A model generated the notes under the pieces. It searched no databases. It was not told the DNA's origin and saw only the letters and a list, made by a program, of their open reading frames with translations. This document shows positions 6,841 to 29,195 of a DNA stretch of 64,000 nt, in pieces. The position numbers and the translations under genes are program-made. Origin of the DNA: Alphaproteobacteria bacterium (GTDB lineage Bacteria > Pseudomonadota > Alphaproteobacteria > MPNO01 > UBA830); assembly GCA_964291215.2 (NCBI GenBank), contig OZ219791.1:512001-576000 (forward strand), read 5' to 3'. Every line of letters starts with the position of its first letter. Position 1 is the first letter of the stretch.

Positions 6841-8379
6841 TCACGCTGCCTGCTCAAGTGACCACGCAACCCGGTCCGCCACAAACTGCGCGAACGGCCC
6901 GATATCTTGATCGATGCTGGCGCTTTCAAGCGCCGCCAGGTAGACATCACGATCCTCGACCCGGATGACGGTCCATGGATAGCCGCCGGATGCCAGCATC
7001 GCGTTCATGACAAAGCGTGCCATACGCCCGTTGCCGTCCGGGTAAGGATGGATATAACCGAACAGCCAGTGCCCGAGCACGGCGCGAACGGAAGGCTCGG
7101 TTTCAGTTTCCAGCAGATCGAACAAGGCTGGCATGGCATCGCGCACCGCCTCCCAGCGCGGCGGCACATGCCGCGATCCCCGCAGAAACACGGCATCGTT
7201 GCGGTAACCCGCCAGAGCGGAAGCCGCGATCAGGCCGGTGGCGACGCAAGGCTGAAACAGCTCGCGATACCAGTCGCGGTGGGCCTTGCGGACTAGAGCA
7301 CCGGCTTCACCGTCGCCAATGATCTCACTGACCGCCGCCCGCACAAGCTGGAACGCCTGCCAATAACCTCGCGCGGCCAGCGCATCGCGGCTCTGCCGGT
7401 CGGCGTCATGATTGTCCGGGTCCCAGCTGCCCGCGCGTACCTGGTCGATCAGCTCCGGCGTGACGCGGTAGCCCTCGATCGACAGCGAGTGATAGGCATC
7501 GTTCTGATAGATATCGTCAACGAAGGACAAATAGGCTTTGGTATCTTTGGGCAGGCCGGGCGCTTCGGGAAATGCTGCGATCACAGGCTCCCGCATCGTC
7601 TCCCACAACGATTGCAGGCGGCCGACAATCGGCGCCTGCGCCCGGCTCAGCGCACCAAAAGCGTGTTCCGGCTCAAACGGATCGGCTTCGCGGACATCGT
7701 AACCGGCGCGTTTCATGACGCTCAGAATCTCATCGGCCACGTCACCCCTGCCGATCCGGCGGAAGGCGCCGGCCAGCCGGCCGGCGATCACCGAATGACC
7801 GCCGTCAAGCAGCCGCCCGAGCACGTCAGCCGCATCGCGGATGCCCGAGAGTACGACCTGCGCTTCGACCGGGTGCCGGACAAAAAACGCCTCCGGCACG
7901 CGCACCAATGCCGCCTCGGGCACAAACAGCCGCAGCCCGTCCCGGTCCATCAGGTCGGCGTCCGGCGGCGTGTCTTTTTGTCTGAGGTCGTATAAAGACG
8001 TGCCGAACAACAGTTCGACGGTGTTGTTGGCGCCCTTGGGCGTATAGATAATGACCTGCTGCGGAATGACGGTGTTTTCCGCGAGGAGCAGCAATGACTG
8101 TTCCGGGGACAGGTGCCAGTCCGGCCCGAACCGGGCCGTACAATAGGCCGCGCAGAACTCCCAGAAAGAAGCGAACCAAGGCGTCGTATCGCCCGGATCG
8201 GCATCAGGGCTGCAAGAGATCAGCCAGCCCTTCATCACCTCGCGCAAGAAACCGTTCCTGACCAGCCGCTGGCGGTGAAAACGCGTCAGCTCGCCGGAGC
8301 GGAAAACCCGCCGCCCTCGGCCCCGGAGCTTCTGGAGCTGCGCCAGCGACGCAGCGAGTTTCTCATTCGGTGTGACCAT
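6841..8379 (-). CDS. Fic family protein (long form)
   Basis: 512 aa ORF with canonical HPYPDGNGRMAR motif and YHSLSIEG. Confidence 0.9.
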   Translation of the reverse strand: MVTPNEKLAASLAQLQKLRGRGRRVFRSGELTRFHRQRLVRNGFLREVMKGWLISCSPDADPGDTTPWFASFWEFCAAYCTARFGPDWHLSPEQSLLLLAENTVIPQQVIIYTPKGANNTVELLFGTSLYDLRQKDTPPDADLMDRDGLRLFVPEAALVRVPEAFFVRHPVEAQVVLSGIRDAADVLGRLLDGGHSVIAGRLAGAFRRIGRGDVADEILSVMKRAGYDVREADPFEPEHAFGALSRAQAPIVGRLQSLWETMREPVIAAFPEAPGLPKDTKAYLSFVDDIYQNDAYHSLSIEGYRVTPELIDQVRAGSWDPDNHDADRQSRDALAARGYWQAFQLVRAAVSEIIGDGEAGALVRKAHRDWYRELFQPCVATGLIAASALAGYRNDAVFLRGSRHVPPRWEAVRDAMPALFDLLETETEPSVRAVLGHWLFGYIHPYPDGNGRMARFVMNAMLASGGYPWTVIRVEDRDVYLAALESASIDQDIGPFAQFVADRVAWSLEQAA

Positions 8380-8559: not shown

Positions 8560-8599
8560 TTGACAATGTCAGATTTTTTGCATATAATACCTGACATTG
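8560..8599 (+). promoter_or_regulatory. Consensus sigma70 promoter overlapped by a 9-bp inverted-repeat operator
   Basis: TTGACA (8560-8565), 17 nt spacer, TATAAT (8583-8588). CAATGTCAG (8564-8572) and CTGACATTG (8591-8599) form a perfect IR. GGAGG RBS precedes the ATG at 8609. Confidence 0.85.
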
Positions 8600-8608
8600 G
8601 AGGTTGCC

Positions 8609-9175
8609 ATGAGCGATGGTCCCCACAGAAGCCTGAAAATGCCGCGCGGCTGGAAAAAGCTCGCAGAGCGCGCCGACAACAAGGCCTACGCGCCCGAAGA
8701 GGTGCGCGACGCCCTGCCGGAAGCGCTTGAGCAGGATTGGCGTGCAGAAGTGCCGGACAGCGTCTGCAGACGCGTCCGTGACATACTTGGCGATAATCAG
8801 AGTTCGCTGTTTGGCGATCAGCGGGCCGAGCGGCTCGAAGCCCTGCGCGGAGAGACGGCCGGATACGCGCTTGGCAATGCCTTGCTCGATTATGCGATTG
8901 AGGTGGCTGCGCAGGGATGCGACGGCGATGAGGCGTTGAGAGAAGCGGCCGGCAAGGCGTTGACGGATCGCGCCGCGCGCGGCGCCCGCCAGGTCGAGGA
9001 GCACTATTGCCGCGAGTCCACGCTCCACCGTGCCGCTCACGTGCGTGAAAGTATCGAAACCGGGGTAACGCAATCGGACATCGACGGCATTGCCGGGCGG
9101 CTCGTCGGCACCGACAAGAGTGAAAAACCGCGACCGGCCAAGCAGACGGGCCTCGATGACGGGGTGCAGCTATGA
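8609..9175 (+). CDS. Hypothetical helical protein, first gene of the QueC-like operon
   Basis: MSDGPHRSLKMPRGW..., good RBS, ATGA overlap with the next gene. Confidence 0.8.
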   Translation: MSDGPHRSLKMPRGWKKLAERADNKAYAPEEVRDALPEALEQDWRAEVPDSVCRRVRDILGDNQSSLFGDQRAERLEALRGETAGYALGNALLDYAIEVAAQGCDGDEALREAAGKALTDRAARGARQVEEHYCRESTLHRAAHVRESIETGVTQSDIDGIAGRLVGTDKSEKPRPAKQTGLDDGVQL

Positions 9176-10566
9176 AGGGCACTGCCGCCGGGAACGCCGC
9201 CGAACTGCCAATACACCGTGTAGACGTTGTCGAGCCGGGGGTGCCGGCACGGCGGCATCGTATCAGGTGCGAGATCGGGGAGACCCTGAGATTCGATACG
9301 GCTGGGCTGGAAGCCTATTGCCTTGCGAATTGGGATGCGCGGGTCTTTGACGCGTTCGTACTCGCGGCCGCCATACAGTTCTGCGACCACACGAAAGCCA
9401 GGCCTTCCGCCCGCTGGGGCCGCGAGATCATCCTGCGCATACCCGTCCATGAACCTACGCATTGGCGTTCGGCGGCGGTTTCAGAGGCATTGCACGGGGC
9501 GTTGGGATTTCTAACCGGCGACCGGTGGCACATCGAATTTGTCGCGCGAAAGAAGTCGGAGTCCCCGCCCCGGCAGCAAAACCTGAGTCTGCCGGACGGC
9601 GAACGCGTCGTTATCCCGTTTCGCGACGGCCTGGACTCGCGGGCGGTCGCCGGTCTGGCGGAACGTGAACATGGCCATAAGCTGATTCGAGTTCGGCTAG
9701 GGTCGCGGTCGCTCAACGGCCATCGCGCCAAAGGCGAGCGCGTGCCCTTTGCTTCGGTGCCGTACCATGTGCGTTTTGGTCGTCGGGGGTCGGTGGAAAC
9801 GAGCGCGCATTCGCGCGGGTTCAAGTTTGCGCTGTTGAGCGGGATCGCGGCCTATCTGTCGCAGGCCCGGCAAGTGATCGTGCCCGAAAGCGGCCAGGGA
9901 GCCCTCGGCCCAGTCCTCGTTCCGGTCGGCCAGGCCTATGAGGACTACCGGAATCATCCGCTCTTCACGGATCGTATGGAAGTCTTTTTATCCGCACTAT
10001 TTGGCCACGAAATTCGGTACACCCATCCGCGTCTCTGGCACACCAAGGCCGAAACGGTGGCAGCGTTCACTGCCGCGTGCCCGGACGGGACGAACTGGGC
10101 GCAGACGCGCTCGTGCTGGCAGGGACAGCGGCAGGCATCCGTATCCGGAAAGTGGCGCCAATGCGGCATCTGTGCCGCCTGCTTGCTCAGACGTATGAGC
10201 GTGCACGCCATGGGCGGCACTGAAGACAGAGCGACGTATATCTGGGAGGACTTGAGTGCCGCCCGCTTCGATGACGGCGCCACCACTGGTTTCAGGAAAA
10301 CCAGGCCGCAGGGCGCCCTCTACGAGTATGCGATTGCGGGGGCGCTTCACCTCGATCATCTGGCGGGGCTGCAGCATTCGCCGGCAAACCAGGTTCTGCT
10401 GGACCGGCAGGTCTTTCAGCTAAGCCGGTCGCTCGGCGTTGCGGAACAGGAAACGCGGCAAAAACTGGAGCGACTGCTCAGCCAGCACGCAAAAGAATGG
10501 AAAGACTTTGTCGGGTCCCTGGGTCCACGCTCATTCGTGGCGCAGTGGGCTTTGGGGGGACCATGA
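9172..10566 (+). CDS. QueC-like (7-cyano-7-deazaguanine synthase / QatC-like) PP-loop protein with N-terminal extension
   Basis: FRDGLDS (variant of the SxGxDS PP-loop), VPESGQG, HPLF, TKAE, and Zn site RSCW..QCGICAACLLRR; 464 aa, longer than housekeeping QueC. Confidence 0.8.
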   Translation: MKGTAAGNAAELPIHRVDVVEPGVPARRHRIRCEIGETLRFDTAGLEAYCLANWDARVFDAFVLAAAIQFCDHTKARPSARWGREIILRIPVHEPTHWRSAAVSEALHGALGFLTGDRWHIEFVARKKSESPPRQQNLSLPDGERVVIPFRDGLDSRAVAGLAEREHGHKLIRVRLGSRSLNGHRAKGERVPFASVPYHVRFGRRGSVETSAHSRGFKFALLSGIAAYLSQARQVIVPESGQGALGPVLVPVGQAYEDYRNHPLFTDRMEVFLSALFGHEIRYTHPRLWHTKAETVAAFTAACPDGTNWAQTRSCWQGQRQASVSGKWRQCGICAACLLRRMSVHAMGGTEDRATYIWEDLSAARFDDGATTGFRKTRPQGALYEYAIAGALHLDHLAGLQHSPANQVLLDRQVFQLSRSLGVAEQETRQKLERLLSQHAKEWKDFVGSLGPRSFVAQWALGGP

Positions 10567-10567
10567 T

Positions 10568-11746
10568 ATGGCGCTGGAGGAACTTAACTCTCAGGATGTC
10601 GGTGAACGTTTGCGGATTGCACGCGAAGAGGCCGGCATTACGCAGGCCGACGCTGCGGCGGGCATCGAAGTCGCGCGAACGACGCTTGTCGCCATAGAAA
10701 AAGGCCAGCGGCGCATCCGGCCGGACGAACTTCAGCGTCTCGCCCGCCTTTACGATACGTCTGTCAATGCGCTGTTGCGGCGCGAGTCCGTCTATGTCGA
10801 TCTCGTACCGCGCTTTAGGAAAGTTAGCACGAGCACTGACGAGGCAGCGGATGCAGCGGCGCGCCTGCTTGCCGATCTGGTCCGGGCCGAAGTGGAGCTT
10901 GAAAATATCCTGGGGATCAAGCGGACGCGGAACTATCCGCCCGAGCGCCCGATCATGCCCGGCGATGTGCGAGCGCAGGCGGAAAACGATGCGACGGAGC
11001 TTCGTCAGTGGCTTGGCCTTGGGCAAGCCCCGGTACGTGAGCTCATCAGCCTTCTGGAACTCGATCTTGGCGTTCGCGTCTATGTCCGGCGTGTTGATCC
11101 GCGCATTTCCGGGCTGTTCGCCTATGACGAGGAGCTCGGCGCCTGCATGCTACTCAACGCGAATCACCCGCGGGAGCGCCGGATGCAATCCGGAGGCCAC
11201 GAACTCGGCCACTTTGTTTCAACGCGGCGGAAGGCTGAAATCCTGCATGTCGACGAGGAAGAAAACTCACGGGAAGAACGCTACGCAAATGCGTTTGGCC
11301 GCGCTTTCCTGACGCCGGCGCGCACTGTCATGCAAAGATTCCGCGAAATCACGGCGGGGGCGTCACGCCTGACGCGCCGGCATGTCATCCTCCTGGCTCA
11401 TGCTTTCGGGGTCTCGCGGGAAGCGATGGTGCGGCGGCTGGAAGAGCTAGCCCTGGCCAAGCCAGGCACGTGGGACTGGTTCGTGGCCAATGGCGGCATC
11501 ACCGATGCGCAGGCCCGGCAGGTTCTGGGCGATCTGACCCCGCTCGATATGGGCAAACAAGATGCGGACCGGCCTACGACGTTGCGGCTGAATCTGCTGG
11601 CCGCGGAGGCGTGGCGCCAGGACCTCCTCAGCGAAGGTCAGCTCACCCGCTTATTGCACCTTGACCGCCTCGGCTTGCGCGAAATTCTGGACAATGTGGA
11701 GATCGAAGGGAGCGAGGCGGATGGAATGCCAAAGCTGCCTGAATGA
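10568..11746 (+). CDS. XRE-HTH + ImmA/IrrE metallopeptidase fusion
   Basis: N-terminal HTH (GERLRIAREEAGITQADAA..VAIEKG), HELGH zinc motif, EERYANAF. Confidence 0.88.
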   Translation: MALEELNSQDVGERLRIAREEAGITQADAAAGIEVARTTLVAIEKGQRRIRPDELQRLARLYDTSVNALLRRESVYVDLVPRFRKVSTSTDEAADAAARLLADLVRAEVELENILGIKRTRNYPPERPIMPGDVRAQAENDATELRQWLGLGQAPVRELISLLELDLGVRVYVRRVDPRISGLFAYDEELGACMLLNANHPRERRMQSGGHELGHFVSTRRKAEILHVDEEENSREERYANAFGRAFLTPARTVMQRFREITAGASRLTRRHVILLAHAFGVSREAMVRRLEELALAKPGTWDWFVANGGITDAQARQVLGDLTPLDMGKQDADRPTTLRLNLLAAEAWRQDLLSEGQLTRLLHLDRLGLREILDNVEIEGSEADGMPKLPE

Positions 11747-12332
11747 TCCCACGACCCTCGTTGTCGCTGATGCCAGTGTCGCAATCAATTTGAATGCGAC
11801 CGGCTTCGCCGCTTCCATATTGGAGGCGTTGCCGAACAGGTTTGCCGTAGTCGAGGAGGTCGCCCTTGAGCTTGAGAACGGGCGGCGGCGCGGGCGCAAC
11901 GACGCCGATGCCCTTAACACTCTTGTCGTTGCCGGCCGCGTTGACATCGTGCGGCTGGGAAACCCCGCCATAGGGTATTTCACGTCGCTTGTTTCAGGGT
12001 CGGCGGCAGAGACACTCGATGACGGTGAGGCCGCGACGATCGCCTACGCCCTGGAACACGGCGCCACAGCCCTGATCGATGAACGCAAAGCCAAGAGGAT
12101 TTGTGCGGAGCGGTACGGCGCTCTGGCCACCGGCTGCACCATCGACATCCTGGCCCATAACGGGGTCGAAGCGGCCCTCGGGCACAGCAGACTTGCCGAT
12201 GGGGTATTCAACGCCCTGTATCACGGCCGCATGCGCGTGCTGGCGCAACACATGAATTGGGTCGTCAATCTGATTGGTTCTGAGCGTGCGGCGCAATGCG
12301 TTTCTTTGCCAAGATCAGTTCGACCGCGTTGA
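11721..12332 (+). CDS. PIN-domain protein (DUF3368-like)
   Basis: VADASVAINL, LDDGEAATIA and IDERKA acidic PIN motifs; overlaps the end of the IrrE gene. Confidence 0.75.
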   Translation: MECQSCLNDPTTLVVADASVAINLNATGFAASILEALPNRFAVVEEVALELENGRRRGRNDADALNTLVVAGRVDIVRLGNPAIGYFTSLVSGSAAETLDDGEAATIAYALEHGATALIDERKAKRICAERYGALATGCTIDILAHNGVEAALGHSRLADGVFNALYHGRMRVLAQHMNWVVNLIGSERAAQCVSLPRSVRPR

Positions 12333-17034: not shown

Positions 17035-17220
17035 CCAACCGGAGATGCGGTGAATGCGACATCGGCGCGGATTCGGGCGCGGAGCTTTGAAATCAACTGG
17101 TGCCTATTCGATACCCGAGAGCTGCAAGTTTCCTGCGCCTGCCTCGGTTGATGTAAATAATAGATTGTTTTTATTATATAATTTTCGTATTTATATGTCT
17201 GGCATCCAAATTCGGATTAC

Positions 17221-17790
17221 CTCGACATCGTGCTGCGTGACGTGCTGCCTGAAGTAGGTAGGAGCGGCAGCGGTCGCCAGGGCTGCATCGACGGCAAGCG
17301 ACCGGAAATCCATCTTCAGCCGCTGATGATGTGCAGTCTTGTAAATGTAGACGGACTGCGCGACCGGATTCCATGCAGGCACTACCAATCGAGTCCGTGC
17401 ATGACCGATCCGTCGATTGCCTAGGATATTACAGAGCGCATTCCGCAACGCTTCCGAACCGTACTTGTTTCGGTAGAGCCGCCGGAGACTGCGCAGCCTC
17501 CTCCCGAGAAGACCGGCCAGACTGTCCCGGTTCTGGCCGAAGATTTCAGGGTCCCGGCTCTCGTACAGGCCGAGTATCTCCGAGGCCGGATGCCCAAGCG
17601 CCAGGGCGACACCGATAATGCCGCCGGTCGACGTTCCGGCGATCAGGTCGAAATAGGATCCGATCGGGCGATCGAGGTGCTGTTCAAGTTCCGTCAGGAA
17701 GGCTGCCGGAAAGGTGCCGAGAATGCCGCCCCCGTCAATGCACAGGAGGCGGCGTCTCGTTTGGCCCGGTCGTTCGTCCTCTCCTGCCAT
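17221..17790 (-). pseudogene. Patatin-like phospholipase (CBASS CapV-like), truncated
   Basis: IDGGGILG, GTSTG and TAAAPTYF motifs. The frame leaves homology at 17221, just before the DGG motif, where an IS66-type end (GTAATCC on the minus strand) begins. Confidence 0.8.
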
Positions 17791-18006
17791 CGGCACTTCC
17801 TCGTATCCGTGCCAGCCGCCTCCCCCTTGGCCGAAGAACCCATCGCACCGACATGCCGAAGCCGAATGGCCTTGCGCTGACACTGTATCTATATATGTGC
17901 GTTTTCCAATCTGTCAATGGAAAGTTTTGACATTATATGTTTGATAACGGAAACTCGCTCCGATGCCGCTGCAGCGGCGGCATTTCAGCAGGGAGGAAAC
18001 AACACC

Positions 18007-19245
18007 ATGCACGCGAAGGATCTGGGATCACGATTGCGCAGGGCGCGCGAATCCCGCGGCCTCAGCCAGCAGGCTGCTGCCCAGGCGTTGGACCTTCCCC
18101 GCACCGCCGTCACGCAGCTTGAGGCCGGTAGTCGATCCGTATCCACCCTCGAACTGATCCGGCTTTCCGAACTCTACCTGCACCCCGTCTTCGATCTCTT
18201 GCATGACGGCCCGAGGGACGAGGATCAGGATGTCCTCGTCGCTCTGCACCGCATTGCCCCGGGGCTGGAGGAAGATCCGGACACGCGCGAGCAGATCACC
18301 CGTTGTGTTCACCTCTGCCGGGAAGGCGTTGCGCTCGTACGTCTGCTGGGCACCGAATACCGATCCGGCCCTCCCAGCTACGACATGCCGATCCCCCACT
18401 CACCCGGAGAGGCTGTCGCACAGGGAGAGGAGACGGCCGAGCAGGAGCGCCGCAGGCTTGGAATCGCCAATGCGCCGATTGCTGACGTATCCGAACTCAT
18501 TGCTTCCCAAGGCATCTGGGCATCCGGCGTCACGCTTCCCGACGGTATGTCAGGCCTCTTCCTGCGGCATCCGAGCATCGGGCTGGCCATTCTCGTGAAT
18601 TCGTCCCATCCGAAAGGACGGAAGCGCTTTTCCTACGCGCACGAATACGCGCACGCCCTCCTCGACCGGAATGACTACGTGACGATTTCCAGCACCGACA
18701 ATTCCTCCGAAATGGTCGAAAAGCGCGCGAACGCATTTGCCGCAGCCTTCCTCATGCCGAGGGCCGGAATCCGTACTTCCCTGCAGGCCCTCGACAAGGG
18801 CCTGCCGAGCCGCCAGGACCACACCATCTTCGACGCCGCGAGCGGGGGCCACATCGAGGCGGCCCAGCGCCCGCCGGCTCGCTCCCAGCGCATCACCTAC
18901 AAGGACAACGCCATGCTCGCGCACCATTTCGGCGTGAGCTACCCGGCGGCCGCCTATCGGCTCAAGAGCCTTCGATACATTTCCGCGCGCGAGTGCAGCG
19001 ACCTGCTCGACCGGGGAAGCGTCGGACGAGAGTATCTTGTTGCCCTCAGCAAGTTCGATGACGTCGGCAAGCGCGAACGGCGACAATACTGGGATCGGGA
19101 GCTTCGCAGCGAAATCGTGCATCTCGCCATCGAGGCCTATCGCCTGGAGGAAATCTCCCGCGGTCGGATCCTGGAACTGAGCAAGACCCTTCGGATCCAA
19201 GGAGACACCCTGCTCAACTTGGCCGAAGCGGCCCGCAACGGATGA
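18007..19245 (+). CDS. Second XRE-HTH + ImmA/IrrE metallopeptidase fusion
   Basis: LGSRLRRARESRGLSQ HTH, RKRFSYAHEYAH, EKRANAFAAAFLMP. Confidence 0.88.
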   Translation: MHAKDLGSRLRRARESRGLSQQAAAQALDLPRTAVTQLEAGSRSVSTLELIRLSELYLHPVFDLLHDGPRDEDQDVLVALHRIAPGLEEDPDTREQITRCVHLCREGVALVRLLGTEYRSGPPSYDMPIPHSPGEAVAQGEETAEQERRRLGIANAPIADVSELIASQGIWASGVTLPDGMSGLFLRHPSIGLAILVNSSHPKGRKRFSYAHEYAHALLDRNDYVTISSTDNSSEMVEKRANAFAAAFLMPRAGIRTSLQALDKGLPSRQDHTIFDAASGGHIEAAQRPPARSQRITYKDNAMLAHHFGVSYPAAAYRLKSLRYISARECSDLLDRGSVGREYLVALSKFDDVGKRERRQYWDRELRSEIVHLAIEAYRLEEISRGRILELSKTLRIQGDTLLNLAEAARNG

Positions 19246-19772
19246 CATTCGTAGCGGGAGAAACCAAGCCGGCGATCATCGTCACCGACACCTCGGTGCT
19301 CATCAATTTTCTACGCATTGACCGGACAGACCTGATCGCCGGCCACTCCCACGATTTCCTCGCCACCGACCATGTCACGGCGGAAATCAGCGACCGCTAT
19401 CCCGACCAACAGCAGAGGTTCGCCGAAGCTCTCGATGCCGGCACCATTTCGGAGACGCGCGTTACCATGCCGGAAGAGCTTCAACTCTTCGAATCCTTGT
19501 TCACCACCGGGCGTCTGGGAGCGGGAGAATGTTCCGCAATCGCCCTCGCCGTTCACCGCGGCTACATCCTTGCCATAGATGATCGCCTCGCTATCCGCCA
19601 TGCGCGCGGGGCTGATGCCCGTCTTCGCATCCTCGCAACACAGGACCTGATGGTCTCAATGATCCGCGAAGGCCTGCTCGAAGTGGAGGAGGCCGACCGC
19701 ATCAAGGGGGACTGGGCCACGCGCCACCGATTTCGCCTCAAGCTGGACAGCTTCCGGGATCTGATCCGCTAA
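19242..19772 (+). CDS. PIN-domain protein
   Basis: VTDTSVLINF, LGAGECSAIA, AIDDRLA; ATGA overlap with the IrrE gene. Confidence 0.8.
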   Translation: MTFVAGETKPAIIVTDTSVLINFLRIDRTDLIAGHSHDFLATDHVTAEISDRYPDQQQRFAEALDAGTISETRVTMPEELQLFESLFTTGRLGAGECSAIALAVHRGYILAIDDRLAIRHARGADARLRILATQDLMVSMIREGLLEVEEADRIKGDWATRHRFRLKLDSFRDLIR

Positions 19773-23733: not shown

Positions 23734-23992
23734 TCACATCAGCAATCCACAGGCCCGACAAAAGAATAGTCCTGCCTGTCGCTCGGGCGGCGCATCATGT
23801 GAAGCGGAGCCATCTGTACCCCGTGACGCGGTATCATATTGATCTGTTGGGCAGCGTCGGCGACGCCGGAACGGCGGCATGCGGTCCACGGGATCCTTTC
23901 CTGCCCGAACCGTGTCGGCCAAGTATGCAGTGGTATTCGTAGAGCCGAGTCGGCAAACTGTATCCACGTTGGCGGCCAAGGATTCAGGCTAT

Positions 23993-25527
<1,535 letters not shown>

Positions 25528-25531
<4 letters not shown>

Positions 25532-26060
25532 CGATGGCCTCTTCCCATCCTTTGCATGCGCTGGGAGACATGTCGGTAAACCAAGGCGCGCGGCACCTTC
25601 CAGTGAAGGCTGTTTTCAGACAGCCTTACCCTTGCCATGATCTGCGAAGGGTTGTCGATAACGATATCGTCGATGACAACGGGAGAGACTTCGCCGGGGC
25701 CGCGCTGAGGCTGCCGCCCGACTTTATCGCCGATGCCCGGGCGCTGGCGGACATGATCGAGGCGGCACCGGATGACTGACCGGCTGCATCTCCAGCCGAA
25801 GCATCGCGAGGCGCTGTTGAGGGAACATCTGCCCGATGTCGAGGTGTGGGCCTATGGCAGCCGTGTCAACGGGCGCAGCCATGACGGCAGCGATCTCGAT
25901 CTGGTGCTGTGCGGGCCAGAATTGATTCCGGTGGGCAATGTGGCGCACGCCTGTGTCATACAACGGTTGCTGAGGCTCATAATCTTGCCGAAACTGATCG
26001 ACCAATCGGCCTGCCGCTCATGGATGAGCCGCAACGGGTCTGCGCACCGGGGACGGAGCA
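25528..26060 (+). pseudogene. Mosaic of remnants: hsdS-like start, HEPN tail, MNT N-terminus, hsdS-like tail
   Basis: 25716-25919 duplicates 26430-26642. LGDMSVN..LPVK..PYP resembles a TRD start and LRLIILPKLI resembles an HsdS C-terminus. Confidence 0.55.
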
Positions 26061-26067
26061 GCGGGGC

Positions 26068-26493
26068 ATGAGCATCGATACCACCTTCTTGCGGCGCTGC
26101 ATCGGAACGCTGGAGACAGCTTTCGGCGAGATCGACAACCAGCGCGCGACGGACGATTTCATGTATGACATCTATCGCGCCGCCTGCGTGAAGGAGTTCG
26201 AGCTGGTGTTGGAGCAGAGCGGCAAACTGTTACGTAAGCGGCTTGCCGCCTTCTTCGCCAGCAACAGACAGGCGGACCGGCTTGCCTTCAAGGACCTGTT
26301 CCGCCACGCCGCCCGGCACGGACTGATCGAAGCCGTCGCGGCGGAACGCTGGTTCAGCTATCGCGACAACCGCAACGATACCGCGCACGACTACGGCGCA
26401 GGCTTCGCCGAGGCCACGCTCAAGTTGTTGCCCGACTTTATCGCCGATGCCCGGGCGCTGGCGGACATGATCGAGGCGGCGCCGGATGACTGA
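26068..26493 (+). CDS. HEPN / nucleotidyltransferase substrate-binding protein (HI0074-like)
   Basis: ACVKEFELVLEQ..FKDLFR..RDNRNDTAHDY (RxxxxH). Confidence 0.82.
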   Translation: MSIDTTFLRRCIGTLETAFGEIDNQRATDDFMYDIYRAACVKEFELVLEQSGKLLRKRLAAFFASNRQADRLAFKDLFRHAARHGLIEAVAAERWFSYRDNRNDTAHDYGAGFAEATLKLLPDFIADARALADMIEAAPDD

Positions 26494-27640
26494 CCGGTTG
26501 CATCTTGAGCCGAAGCACCGCCAGGTGCTGACAGCCCTGCTGCGGGAGCATTTGCCCGATGTCGAGGTATGGGCCTATGGCAGCCGCGTCAACGGGCGCA
26601 GCCATGACGGCAGTGATCTCGATCTGGTGCTGCGCGGGCCAGGACAGGGGGAGATCCCGGCCGACAAGTTGGCGGACTTCGAGGAGGCGGTGCGGGAATC
26701 GACCATTCCCTTCTTGGTCGAGGCCCGCGACTGGGCGCGCCTGCCGGAGCGGTTTCACCGGGAGATCGAGCGAGATCATGTGGTACTGGCTGATGCGGGG
26801 CGTTCTTCCATTACGTTTGGAACCGCGATATTGGGCAAAGTCACCAAGCCAACTCTGAGTAGTGTCGACAAAAAAAGTAAGAATTGAGAATTTACTGTAT
26901 CACTTTGCAACTATATGGATGTCTATTCAAGGAGCTTCATCCAAGCTGATATTCCATTCATGACGGCGACTGCTACAAGGAAAGAGATTGAACGGTGCAG
27001 ATTACAAACCGACGATGTCATTATTACTAAAGACTTGGAAAAACATGATGACATTGGAGTTCCCGCACTTGTCCGTGAGAATATCAAAGGGCTTGTGTGT
27101 GGGTATCACCTCGCGATTCTTCGCCCATCAAAAGATGAACTTCATGGACCTTATCTGTACTACGCACTTCAAACCGGAGAGGCTCGGCACCAATTTCACA
27201 CCTTCGCCAACGGTGTGACAAGATTTGGCCTGCGTAAAGACGATATTTTTCGTGTCAAGGTTCCCCTCCCTCCCCTCCCGAGCAGCGAGCGATTGCGGGC
27301 CTCCTCGGCGCGCTGGACGACAAGATCGAACTGAACCGGCGGATGAACCGGACGCTGGAGGCGATGGCGCGGGCGATCTTCCAGGACTGGTTCGTCGATT
27401 TCGGGCCGGTCCGGGCGAAGAGGGAAGGGCGTGCGCCCTATCTGTCTCCCGAAATATGGAAACTGTTTCCTGATGCGCCGGACGGCGAGGGCATTCCTTT
27501 CGGTTGGGAAGTTTCAGCAATCGGTAGAGAAGTCAATACTGTCGGAGGTGCTACCCCGAGCACGAAGGATCCCTCGTTTTGGGAAGGCGGCGAGTTCCAT
27601 TGGGCCACACCAAAGGATCTGTCGAAATTGTTGTCGCCGG
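26486..27640 (+). pseudogene. hsdS: Minimal nucleotidyltransferase (MNT) fused to type I HsdS; nonsense codon, frameshift and IS66 truncation
   Basis: YGSR..DGSDLDL MNT motif. TGA at 26885 is in frame with the HsdS-like TRD (VDKKSKN*EFTVSLCNYMDVY). Frameshift near 27280 restores [29 protein letters not shown]. Confidence 0.78.
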
Positions 27641-29195
27641 GTAACTGCTCACCCCCTGGTTCCGGCTTGATGTCGGGGTAGAGTAACGAACGGGTTTACG
27701 TGGAGATTTGACACTGCAGGCCGATTCGTTTAGTGGTGGTAATCGAGAACGACGGGGACCGCCAGTGGGCTACTTTGGATCGAAGGCGACGAGCGGGCTG
27801 TGCCAGCTGCTTCCGGGGCTCCAGCCCCCGCATGATCTGTATGTGGAAACGCATCTCGGAAGCGGCGCGCTAATGAAGCGCAAGGCCGGGTGATGGCGAC
27901 GGTCAACGCGGCGCGCGAGGAGTTCGAAGCGGCCAGGATCGCGGCGCTGCGTGCGGCCGGCAAGGTGGCGGAAGAGGCCGTCATCCGCGTCCTCGTCATC
28001 CTGCTCGACATCATCATCGTCGTCCTTCTGGAGAAGACCACGCACGAGCCGGAACTCCGGTCTGCCGCCGTCACAGACGGACAAGAGCGTGCCGGGAGCA
28101 ACGGCAAGGGCCCGAAGCCGAACCGGCAGATGGGCGACAACCTGCGCAAGACCATCGTCGAGGAGACGGTCGCGGTCGATGTCTGCGACGCCTGCGGCGC
28201 TGACGGCGTCGACCCCGTCGATCGGGAGCGCCGCACGACATCGTGTTCGAGGTCGTCGAGCGCCGCGCCGAGATCAAGGAATGCCCGAAGTGCAAGGCCC
28301 GGACCAAGGGCCGGTTTCCCGACAACATCCCGTGCAGTACGGCATCGGCATTCAGGCCCTCGTCATCAACCTGCTGGTCGCCCAGATGCTGTCCCTGCGC
28401 CGTGCCGTCGCGTTCGTGCAGGCGATCTCCGGCATCAAGCTCTCCGAGGCAACCTGCCTCGGCTATGCTTTCACGATGCGCTCGTGTCATGGGAGGAGGC
28501 CGCCGTGGCGCACCTCCTGCAACGCCCGATGTCGATGATTTCGGATCAACAGTAAGTGGCTCCATGTCGTGGGACCCTGACGTGCAAGTTCCCGCACCGC
28601 AAGCGCGGCCGGGAGGCAAGAGATCGGCATCATCCCGTGCTACAAGGGCGTCCTGGGCCTCGTACATGGGCCAGTGTAGCCACCAGCTGTGCGGCAGCCA
28701 CCTGCTGCGCGAACTGACCTTTGTCGTCGAGGCTACCGCGCGACTGATGAAGAGCCTGCTCCCTGCCACAAGGTCAACAAAAGCGCATCCAAGACCCTGA
28801 ACGACGCCGGGCGCAAGCGCTACCGCACCATCAGGGCGCCAGGGAACTGCCCGATATCCCGCCGAAAGGAAAACGTGGACGCAAGTCCGACGCGCACAAC
28901 CTGCACGAACGTCTCGTGAAACACGAAAACCTGCGCTTCACAGACGACCCCAACGTCAGCTTCACCAACAATGCCGGAGAACAGAAGATCAGGATGGCAA
29001 AGGTCAAGCTCAAGGTGTCTGGATGCTTCCGCTCCACGCAAAAGCATGGTGCCGGGGCTCAAGCTACCTCACCTCCATGGCCGCACTCGGCTACAACCCA
29101 CTCGTCGCCACCCAGATCGCCCTCGACGGAAAAGCCGCAGACATCATCAACGAGCACTATGGCCAATCAGAACCCAACAAGGGGTGAGTAGATAC
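27641..29195 (+). mobile_element. IS66-family (single-ORF type) element, degenerate, copy 1
   Basis: TIR GTAACTGCTCACCCC / GGGGTGAGTAGATAC; CPKC, HQLCGSHLLREL, FTNNAGEQKIRMAKVK. No TSD, implying an adjacent deletion. Confidence 0.85.

Follow-up and report, generated by a model that had tools for sequence, protein, structure and literature searches.

A conserved four-gene operon joins a QatC-like enzyme to a peptidase-regulator and a PIN-like nuclease in a candidate anti-phage system

What does an operon do that places a QueC-like enzyme ahead of a regulatory peptidase and a nuclease, and does it already have a name? The question is raised by a 64,000-nucleotide stretch of an alphaproteobacterial contig (OZ219791.1, positions 512,001 to 576,000; hereafter the window), in which four genes follow one another on the plus strand. 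ORF1 (8609-9175, 188 amino acids, starting MSDGPH) shares an ATGA overlap with ORF2 (9172-10566, 464 amino acids), ORF3 (10568-11746, 392 amino acids) begins after a gap of 1 nucleotide, and ORF4 (11721-12332, 203 amino acids) overlaps ORF3 by 26 nucleotides. An earlier annotation made from the letters alone (the sequence-only reading) took the set for an undescribed defence system in which the enzyme, ORF2, attaches a deazaguanine to ORF1. We find that the operon is conserved and, by analogy with its relatives, probably has an anti-phage role. Both of its halves have known relatives; the combination, and an enzyme with a D-x-R substrate site, are apparently new.

To survey the gene order, we scanned species-level genomes with an ORF1 pattern seeded by MSDGPH, which gave 220 relatives, of which the best 80 were kept; eight named phyla are represented. 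Unpublished data supply one of these loci (L019, genome G016), which enters the 80 loci, the 50 hosts discussed below, the alignments and the flank survey, although none of the claims depends on it alone. Among the best 80, ORF2 directly follows ORF1 in 79, and all four genes are present in 69 of the 71 loci with at least 3.3 kb of downstream sequence. Because this search had been seeded with MSDGPH, a second search, of metagenomes, was anchored on the PIN gene. It returned 80 contigs, 42 with room for four genes; all 42 have the four, and in 38 the first protein starts MSDGPH. On plasmids, all 25 records with an ORF2 match over at least 80% of its length also have ORF4, and ORF2 is present in 25 of the 26 records with ORF4, the exception being a Microvirga plasmid with the PIN gene alone. 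The PIN-anchored search and the plasmid loci also counter the suspicion that MSDGP is an artefact of the search pattern. The four-gene order is thus shared with other genomes, as expected of a system. Other departures from the rule are a truncated PIN gene (L042) and a fragment of ORF1 only (L072). At L036:7097-8864 an extra ORF3-ORF4 pair lies upstream of a full operon, without ORF1-ORF2 or operator, its ORF3 being 93% identical to the copy in the operon.

The recognition of ORF2 as a QueC-like enzyme of the QatC type is borne out. The protein is of the pyrophosphate-loop (PP-loop) ATP pyrophosphatase type with a zinc site at C315, C331, C334 and C337, and it matches QatC in PADLOC (E 8e-30) and 9vlk by hmmsearch (E 1e-29). 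In Foldseek its predicted structure (predicted local distance difference test, pLDDT, 88) aligns with the QatC chains of 9y01 and 9y02 at template modelling (TM) scores of 0.62-0.63. The NCBIfam QatC score of 103.6 bits lies below the cut-off of 280, and the canonical QueC model TIGR00364 gives 16.1 bits against a cut-off of 150.3, canonical QueC being about 220 amino acids long against the 464 of ORF2. In a midpoint-rooted FastTree tree of 26 family members and 8 QatC-like proteins, built with neither an outgroup nor a clade test, the family forms a single clade separate from QatC (support 0.94); judged by sequence, it is a sister clade of QatC. No relative of ORF2 was found encoded on viral contigs. 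In RefSeq most of the plasmid enzymes (records H1-H25) are called 7-cyano-7-deazaguanine synthase, which is likely a misannotation.

The substrate site sets the family apart. D258 and R260 are invariant in 67 ORF2-family sequences and align without gaps to the T-x-T of QatC (STRTTHP), whereas Y256 varies. In QueC and Cap9, 7-carboxy-7-deazaguanine (CDG) is read by a Tyr/Asp pair, and QatC has two invariant threonines there (PMC13279940). We also asked which hosts carry genes for the CDG pathway. The test covered 50 hosts from among the 80 loci. A QueD-family gene is present in 33 of them, a canonical QueC in 30 and neither in 14; QueE was not searched, so that the absence calls cover QueD and canonical QueC. 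All 14 hosts lacking both have intact ORF2 motifs, and they include three single-chromosome assemblies and five named-strain genomes. The source genome of the window (99.3% complete) likewise has no QueD, QueF or canonical QueC, QueE again not having been searched. None of the window ORFs scanned is a que gene and tgt lies elsewhere in the genome, in agreement with the claim that no que or tgt genes are nearby. With 14 of 50 hosts and the source genome lacking QueD and canonical QueC, host-made CDG is unlikely to be the general substrate. Given this distribution and the D-x-R site, the proposed deazaguanylation of ORF1 is not supported; such a reaction by ORF2 is doubtful on sequence grounds, and the family likely uses a substrate other than those of its known relatives.

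ORF1 is a widespread protein (809 clusters of relatives at 50% identity) with no assigned family. An AlphaFold2 model (pLDDT 92) shows an all-helical body in which the N-terminus is ordered and the C-terminal tail loose. MSDGP opens 107 of 120 matches, and D3 and G4 are invariant. In distant members the protein opens with MTDG or (M)RDG, and further variants are MNDG, MIDG and MDG, so that xDG and not Ser2 is the constant element. Of the N-terminal SDGP whose conservation the sequence-only reading wanted surveyed, D3-G4 therefore stands, and Ser2, which may be S, T, R, N, I or absent, does not. Sequence searches of the Protein Data Bank gave nothing real, Foldseek no match at E<=0.001 and the ESM Atlas no usable match. 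A wide VIA search listed generic helical bundles at best (Z 6.6), QatB not being listed, and no sequence link to QatB was detected by hhalign (0.35%). VIA re-alignment to chain A of 9y01 (Z 4.5, root-mean-square deviation 4.8, 131 residues, QatB 64-254, rank 23) spans the whole core and lies within the noise for helical proteins. A G-P...W spacing recalls QatB as well, G4-P5...W15 in ORF1 being five residues shorter than G9-P10...W20 in QatB tails (five of the MGTS type), a post hoc observation of low weight.

When ORF1 and ORF2 were modelled together, the complex scored 0.90, against 0.50 for the best of 3 controls. Among solved complexes 116 of 157 attain the mark used for such a call, and among mismatched pairs 2 of 215; with the alignments used here these figures are only rough. 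Contacts agreed between runs by at least 89%, with a partner pLDDT of at least 79. The predicted face on ORF2 comprises residues 79-85 and 108-119, the loop 250-256 and the C-terminal helices 384-416; that on ORF1 includes the conserved RQVEEHYxR, and residues 10-12 touch ORF2. In the solved structures, QatB contacts the corresponding loop and C-terminal helices of QatC (PMC13279940, PMC13639016). ORF1 is thus predicted by modelling to be a binding partner of ORF2, and it reads as a compact analogue or remote homologue of QatB without the long tail. As regards the QatB-like role assigned to it earlier, the predicted binding speaks for it; the model does not place the N-terminus in the active site. 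The C-terminal LDDGV was considered as a reactive tail and set aside. The tail varies in length, and 70 of 74 loci have GGA or GGG as the glycine codon of this motif (window 9150-9175), codons used for 474 of 1085 ORF1 glycines overall; the codon therefore doubles as the ribosome-binding site of ORF2. The Asp residues ahead of this glycine are conserved, with free codon choice.

The second half of the operon is more familiar. ORF3 joins an Xre helix-turn-helix (HTH) to an IrrE/ImmA-type zinc peptidase, with Pfam HTH_3 and Peptidase_M78 both over cut-off and H211, E212, H215 and E237 invariant in 55 sequences. Single-stranded DNA as the trigger of CapP/IrrE and the role of the third zinc ligand form part of the general background on such peptidases. 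In PADLOC the protein matches RmrA (3e-26), capP (1e-13) and capH (3e-8). Of 25 members whose C-terminal tails were searched, 20 match UPF0175, with a best E of 1.8e-6 and two reaching or exceeding the cut-off. ORF4 matches PADLOC PDC-S70 (1e-10) and, the profiles being weak, Pfam PIN in 3 of 62 members; D17, E50, D101, E103 and D120 are invariant acidic residues, and one RefSeq homologue is named a PIN domain protein. By these sequence features ORF3 is likely a self-repressing regulator and antitoxin, and ORF4 likely an RNA-cutting toxin, a PIN-like nuclease. UPF0175/COG2886 and COG2856 have been listed as partners of PIN proteins (PMC2701414), and HTH-DUF955/M78 genes with PIN are a described kind of predicted toxin-antitoxin (TA) pair (PMC2701414, PMC5499597, PMC10440598). 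With its UPF0175-like antitoxin tail, ORF3 together with ORF4 falls into this kind, and novelty cannot be claimed for the peptidase and PIN half.

Upstream of ORF1 lies a sigma-70-type promoter on the plus strand (TTGACA-17-TATAAT, 8560-8588) that matches the consensus at 12 of 12 positions; a promoter scan of the region gave 2 sites where 0.7 would be expected. The -35 box is kept upstream of most homologues. Three TGACA half-sites (8561-8598, TGACAwTGTCAG-N17/18-CTGACA) are placed across the -35 box and beyond the -10 box, and the outer pair in the window reads AATGTCAG-N18-CTGACATT (8565-8598). With at most one mismatch, TGTCAG-N-CTGACA (mostly N18) occurs in 73 of 85 upstream regions, the window included, against 3 of 2000 random windows. 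We infer by analogy that this operator is the target of the Xre HTH of ORF3. The overlapping or abutting genes, the promoter and the operator palindrome described earlier are thus real. A divergent promoter (10 of 12 positions) is also present at 8458-8429. In many loci, among them L005, L015, L019, L044 and L046, a second TA-like operon (HipA-like by eye, AbiE, Fic) stands head-to-head with the promoter, so that the operator may act in both directions.

The window copy itself departs from the family in a way that the sequence-only reading overlooked. Alone among aligned members, its ORF2 has Arg at the first serine of the pyrophosphate loop (S151R, giving FRDGLDS), and His replaces the near-invariant R213 (R213H). 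Mutation of both loop serines abolishes Qat defence (PMC13279940). Sequencing runs X1 and X2, one of which may be the source of this DNA, carry both changes, and an assembly error at S151R was rejected since two runs have it. A third run, X3 (~98.5% identical), keeps the serine, but its codon 213 is altered in another way and the reading frame shifts at 10257. No indels are listed for ORF3 and ORF4 in X1, X2 and X3 (for X3, in that contig). With S151R in the P-loop and R213H, this ORF2 is probably inactive. The loss of the enzyme in this lineage, where the frames of peptidase and PIN remain open, argues that ORF2 is not the neutraliser of the PIN protein, and the extra ORF3-ORF4 copy at L036, which does without ORF1-ORF2, likewise counts against the QueC-like enzyme being an antitoxin.

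Defence genes surround the operon in other genomes too. A simple scoring script chose 568 genes within 5 kb of 76 loci, falling into 409 families; 407 family representatives were scanned, the extra ORF3 and ORF4 of L036 being left out, and 136 genes chosen likewise from 20 regions of the source genome served as control. At a PADLOC threshold of E<=1e-30, 54 of 407 flank families matched, against 1 of 136 control genes (Fisher p 1.7e-6, with a control from a single genome and related loci that are not independent), and 55 of the 76 loci have at least one such neighbour. The matches include Gabija, AbiE, restriction-modification (RM) types I-III, Hachiman, Septu, cyclic oligonucleotide-based antiphage signalling systems (CBASS), prokaryotic Argonaute (pAgo) and Uzume.

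How might the two halves work together? We put at even chances a coupled anti-phage system: ORF3 would act as repressor of the operon and restrain the PIN protein, and ORF1-ORF2 would activate defence by an amide ligation not involving CDG. The steps are drawn by inference from CapP/IrrE, RosmerTA and Qat. Repression would be exerted by the HTH of ORF3 on the TGACA operator, and the UPF0175-like tail of ORF3 would bind the PIN protein and hold the nuclease in check. Single-stranded DNA or DNA damage linked to infection could activate the M78 peptidase, as for CapP/IrrE, and the peptidase would then cut ORF3 itself, raising expression and freeing the PIN protein to arrest the cell. ORF2, bound to ORF1, would use ATP to join a non-CDG substrate to the xDGP N-terminus by an amide bond, and this modification would switch on defence. 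The pair would thus be an activating or phage-facing arm, like QatBC in Qat, and not an antitoxin; QatBC alone defends against some phages (PMC13279940). The window copy would probably be disarmed at the ORF1-ORF2 step.

Several observations weigh against this reading. The PIN gene of the Microvirga plasmid (L083:9001-9579) stands without ORF3, and in L076 an intact PIN gene lies beside a frameshifted ORF3, both being awkward for a strict antitoxin role. As QatBC has already been solved, the ORF1-ORF2 model may pass in part by likeness; residues 2-9 of ORF1 are not among the confident contacts, and the N-terminus is not placed in the ORF2 active site. Many ORF2 members read YPDYR or YEDYR, close to the canonical YPDCR, so that the register may be shifted by two residues and CDG binding preserved, and a low-level NDG peptide has been detected on QatB despite the T-x-T site of QatC (PMC13639016). 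Several of the 14 hosts without QueD and QueC are incomplete metagenome-assembled genomes. Finally, the PADLOC matches in the flanks also take in generic kinases, helicases and methylases.

The alternative that survives best is that the operon holds two co-regulated but chemically independent modules, ORF1-ORF2 defending by itself like QatBC and ORF3-ORF4 acting as a regulator and TA pair of the RmrA/CapHP type that does no more than control transcription and stabilise the element. We hold this to be rather unlikely. HTH-DUF955 and PIN pairs are common on their own (PMC2701414, PMC5499597), as ORF3-ORF4 are in L036, and QatBC is sufficient against some phages. The window itself has a second, distant HTH-M78 and PIN-like pair (17917-19772, 29% identity). 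What speaks against independence is the near-absolute linkage of the two halves in both directions across eight phyla; swappable regulators are usually less tightly linked than ORF1-ORF4.

It is improbable, in our estimate, that ORF2 deazaguanylates Ser2 of ORF1 with CDG from the 7-deazaguanine pathway of the host or of an infecting phage. Were phage CDG used, the system would be a sensor of DNA-modifying phages. The resemblance of Y-x-D-x-R to the canonical motif and the NDG peptide on QatB fit such a chemistry, the tails of CBASS CD-NTases tolerate M(G/S)G (10.1101/2025.04.06.647259), and 36 of the 50 hosts have QueD or QueC. Yet D258 and R260 are invariant where Y256 is not, position 2 of ORF1 varies next to a fixed D3-G4, and the pathway genes tested are missing from the other 14 hosts and the source genome.

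The non-CDG chemistry can be made more specific, though only as a speculation that we think unlikely. The D-x-R enzyme would represent a third, queuosine-independent protein-modification chemistry of the QueC family, activating a protein carboxylate, most simply that of the invariant Asp3 of ORF1, and ligating it to an amine, so that an isopeptide bond would tie it to a target in the phage or the host. Alternatively, the M78 peptidase would unmask Gly4 as a new N-terminus. Modified ORF1 would then directly switch on the PIN protein. The least probable explanation is that the operon has no part in defence against phages and serves plasmids and integrative elements as a stress-response or addiction module. 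Its occurrence in 25 plasmid records, and its proximity to integrases, resolvases, transposases and other TA genes, fit this view. Against it stand the over-representation of RM, Gabija, AbiE, Hachiman, CBASS, pAgo and Septu genes in the flanks and the anti-phage function of all characterised QueC-family enzymes with protein partners (QatC, Cap9) and all tested RmrA systems in the sources consulted.

The neighbours in the window are as described earlier, with qualifications. A Fic gene (6841-8379) is divergent from the operon, and beyond it lies the N-terminal stub of an ATPase, seen by a Walker-A-like motif alone and interrupted by an insertion sequence (IS)-like element. The Fic neighbour is not conserved elsewhere; Fic was considered as a fifth component and rejected, being missing from most loci. 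Defence genes do lie around the operon, but the supposed defence-rich island is better called a decayed mobile and defence island, since the surroundings (5-29 kb of the window) hold pieces of IS5, IS66 and ISAzo13, DUF736, DUF2274, a patatin stub, HsdM/HsdS of a type I RM remnant, and nucleotidyltransferase remnants. The patatin stub, on the minus strand, is divergent from the second HTH-M78/PIN-like pair, and the stretch (17191-19772) looks like a CapH/CapP regulator in fused form next to the ruin of a CBASS-type effector. In the RM remnant (23879-27681) HsdM looks intact, and nucleotidyltransferase/HEPN-like genes are inserted ahead of a fragmented HsdS. A different QueC-family layout was seen on a plasmid of Mesorhizobium sp. 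AR10 (L093:507-6119), which has genes for a CHAT-domain protein, a partner with a glycine-rich MGSSGSG tail, a divergent QatC-like enzyme whose substrate site reads ITTRHAHP, and an ASCH protein, without QatA or QatD.

The structure papers of 2026 explicitly leave open which reaction QatC carries out (PMC13279940) and by what means QatBC acts against phages. The present family bears on both: its QatC-type enzyme, the second of its kind and widespread, differs in its invariant substrate site, has a compact partner and occurs in hosts apparently lacking CDG synthesis. The defined effector (PIN) and the regulator, whose operator is conserved, would, moreover, offer simple read-outs (toxicity, reporter, intact mass) that Qat lacks.

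Neither the four-gene combination nor the D-x-R enzyme was found in PADLOC 2.0, NCBIfam 20.0 or the openly searchable literature, subscription journals lying outside this scope; as far as it was accessible, a survey of PF06508 describes no such operon, and its supplement has no PF06114 row. The architecture thus keeps its status as an unnamed system, a candidate missing from the PADLOC and NCBIfam versions searched. QatABCD is a close relation: ORF2 shares the N- and C-terminal extensions of QatC and its WxR, RxRxxxF, ExG, HP and zinc-site motifs, and a small helical gene, ORF1, overlaps the enzyme gene from upstream, its product predicted onto the same regions. However, the operon has neither QatA (a KAP ATPase) nor QatD (a TatD nuclease), as noted from the letters; tblastn with two queries each found none in the window, and one weak QatA match ~9 kb away in 1 of 80 loci. 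ORF2 has D-x-R in place of T-x-T and forms its own midpoint-rooted clade below the NCBIfam cut-off, and ORF1 starts xDGP, with about 8 residues ahead of its folded body, whereas QatB has MGTS on a tail of 30-90 residues. With Cap9 of type IV CBASS, ORF2 would share action on the N-terminus of a partner, but none of the four proteins matches CD-NTase or TGT-like Cap10 models in Pfam, PADLOC or NCBIfam. Cap9 is, besides, minimal where ORF2 is long and QatC-like, and although ORF2 has Y-x-D, Y256 varies and the alignment register favours D/R over the Y/D pair that reads CDG. From canonical QueC it differs in falling under the TIGR00364 cut-off and in a source genome without QueD. RosmerTA and the HTH-M78-PIN and COG2886/UPF0175-PIN pairs share with ORF3-ORF4 the HTH-HExxH fusion, the overlapping PIN gene that follows and the UPF0175-like tail; here, by contrast, the pair nearly always stands behind a QueC-like enzyme and its partner, a four-gene form that the accessible parts of that literature do not contain. 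Finally, CapH/CapP likewise pair an Xre HTH with a peptidase of the IrrE kind, and there too a conserved operator covers the promoter of a defence-like operon. They are, however, divergent from the genes they control, whereas ORF3 is a single fused protein with an antitoxin-like tail, encoded inside the operon that it would control.

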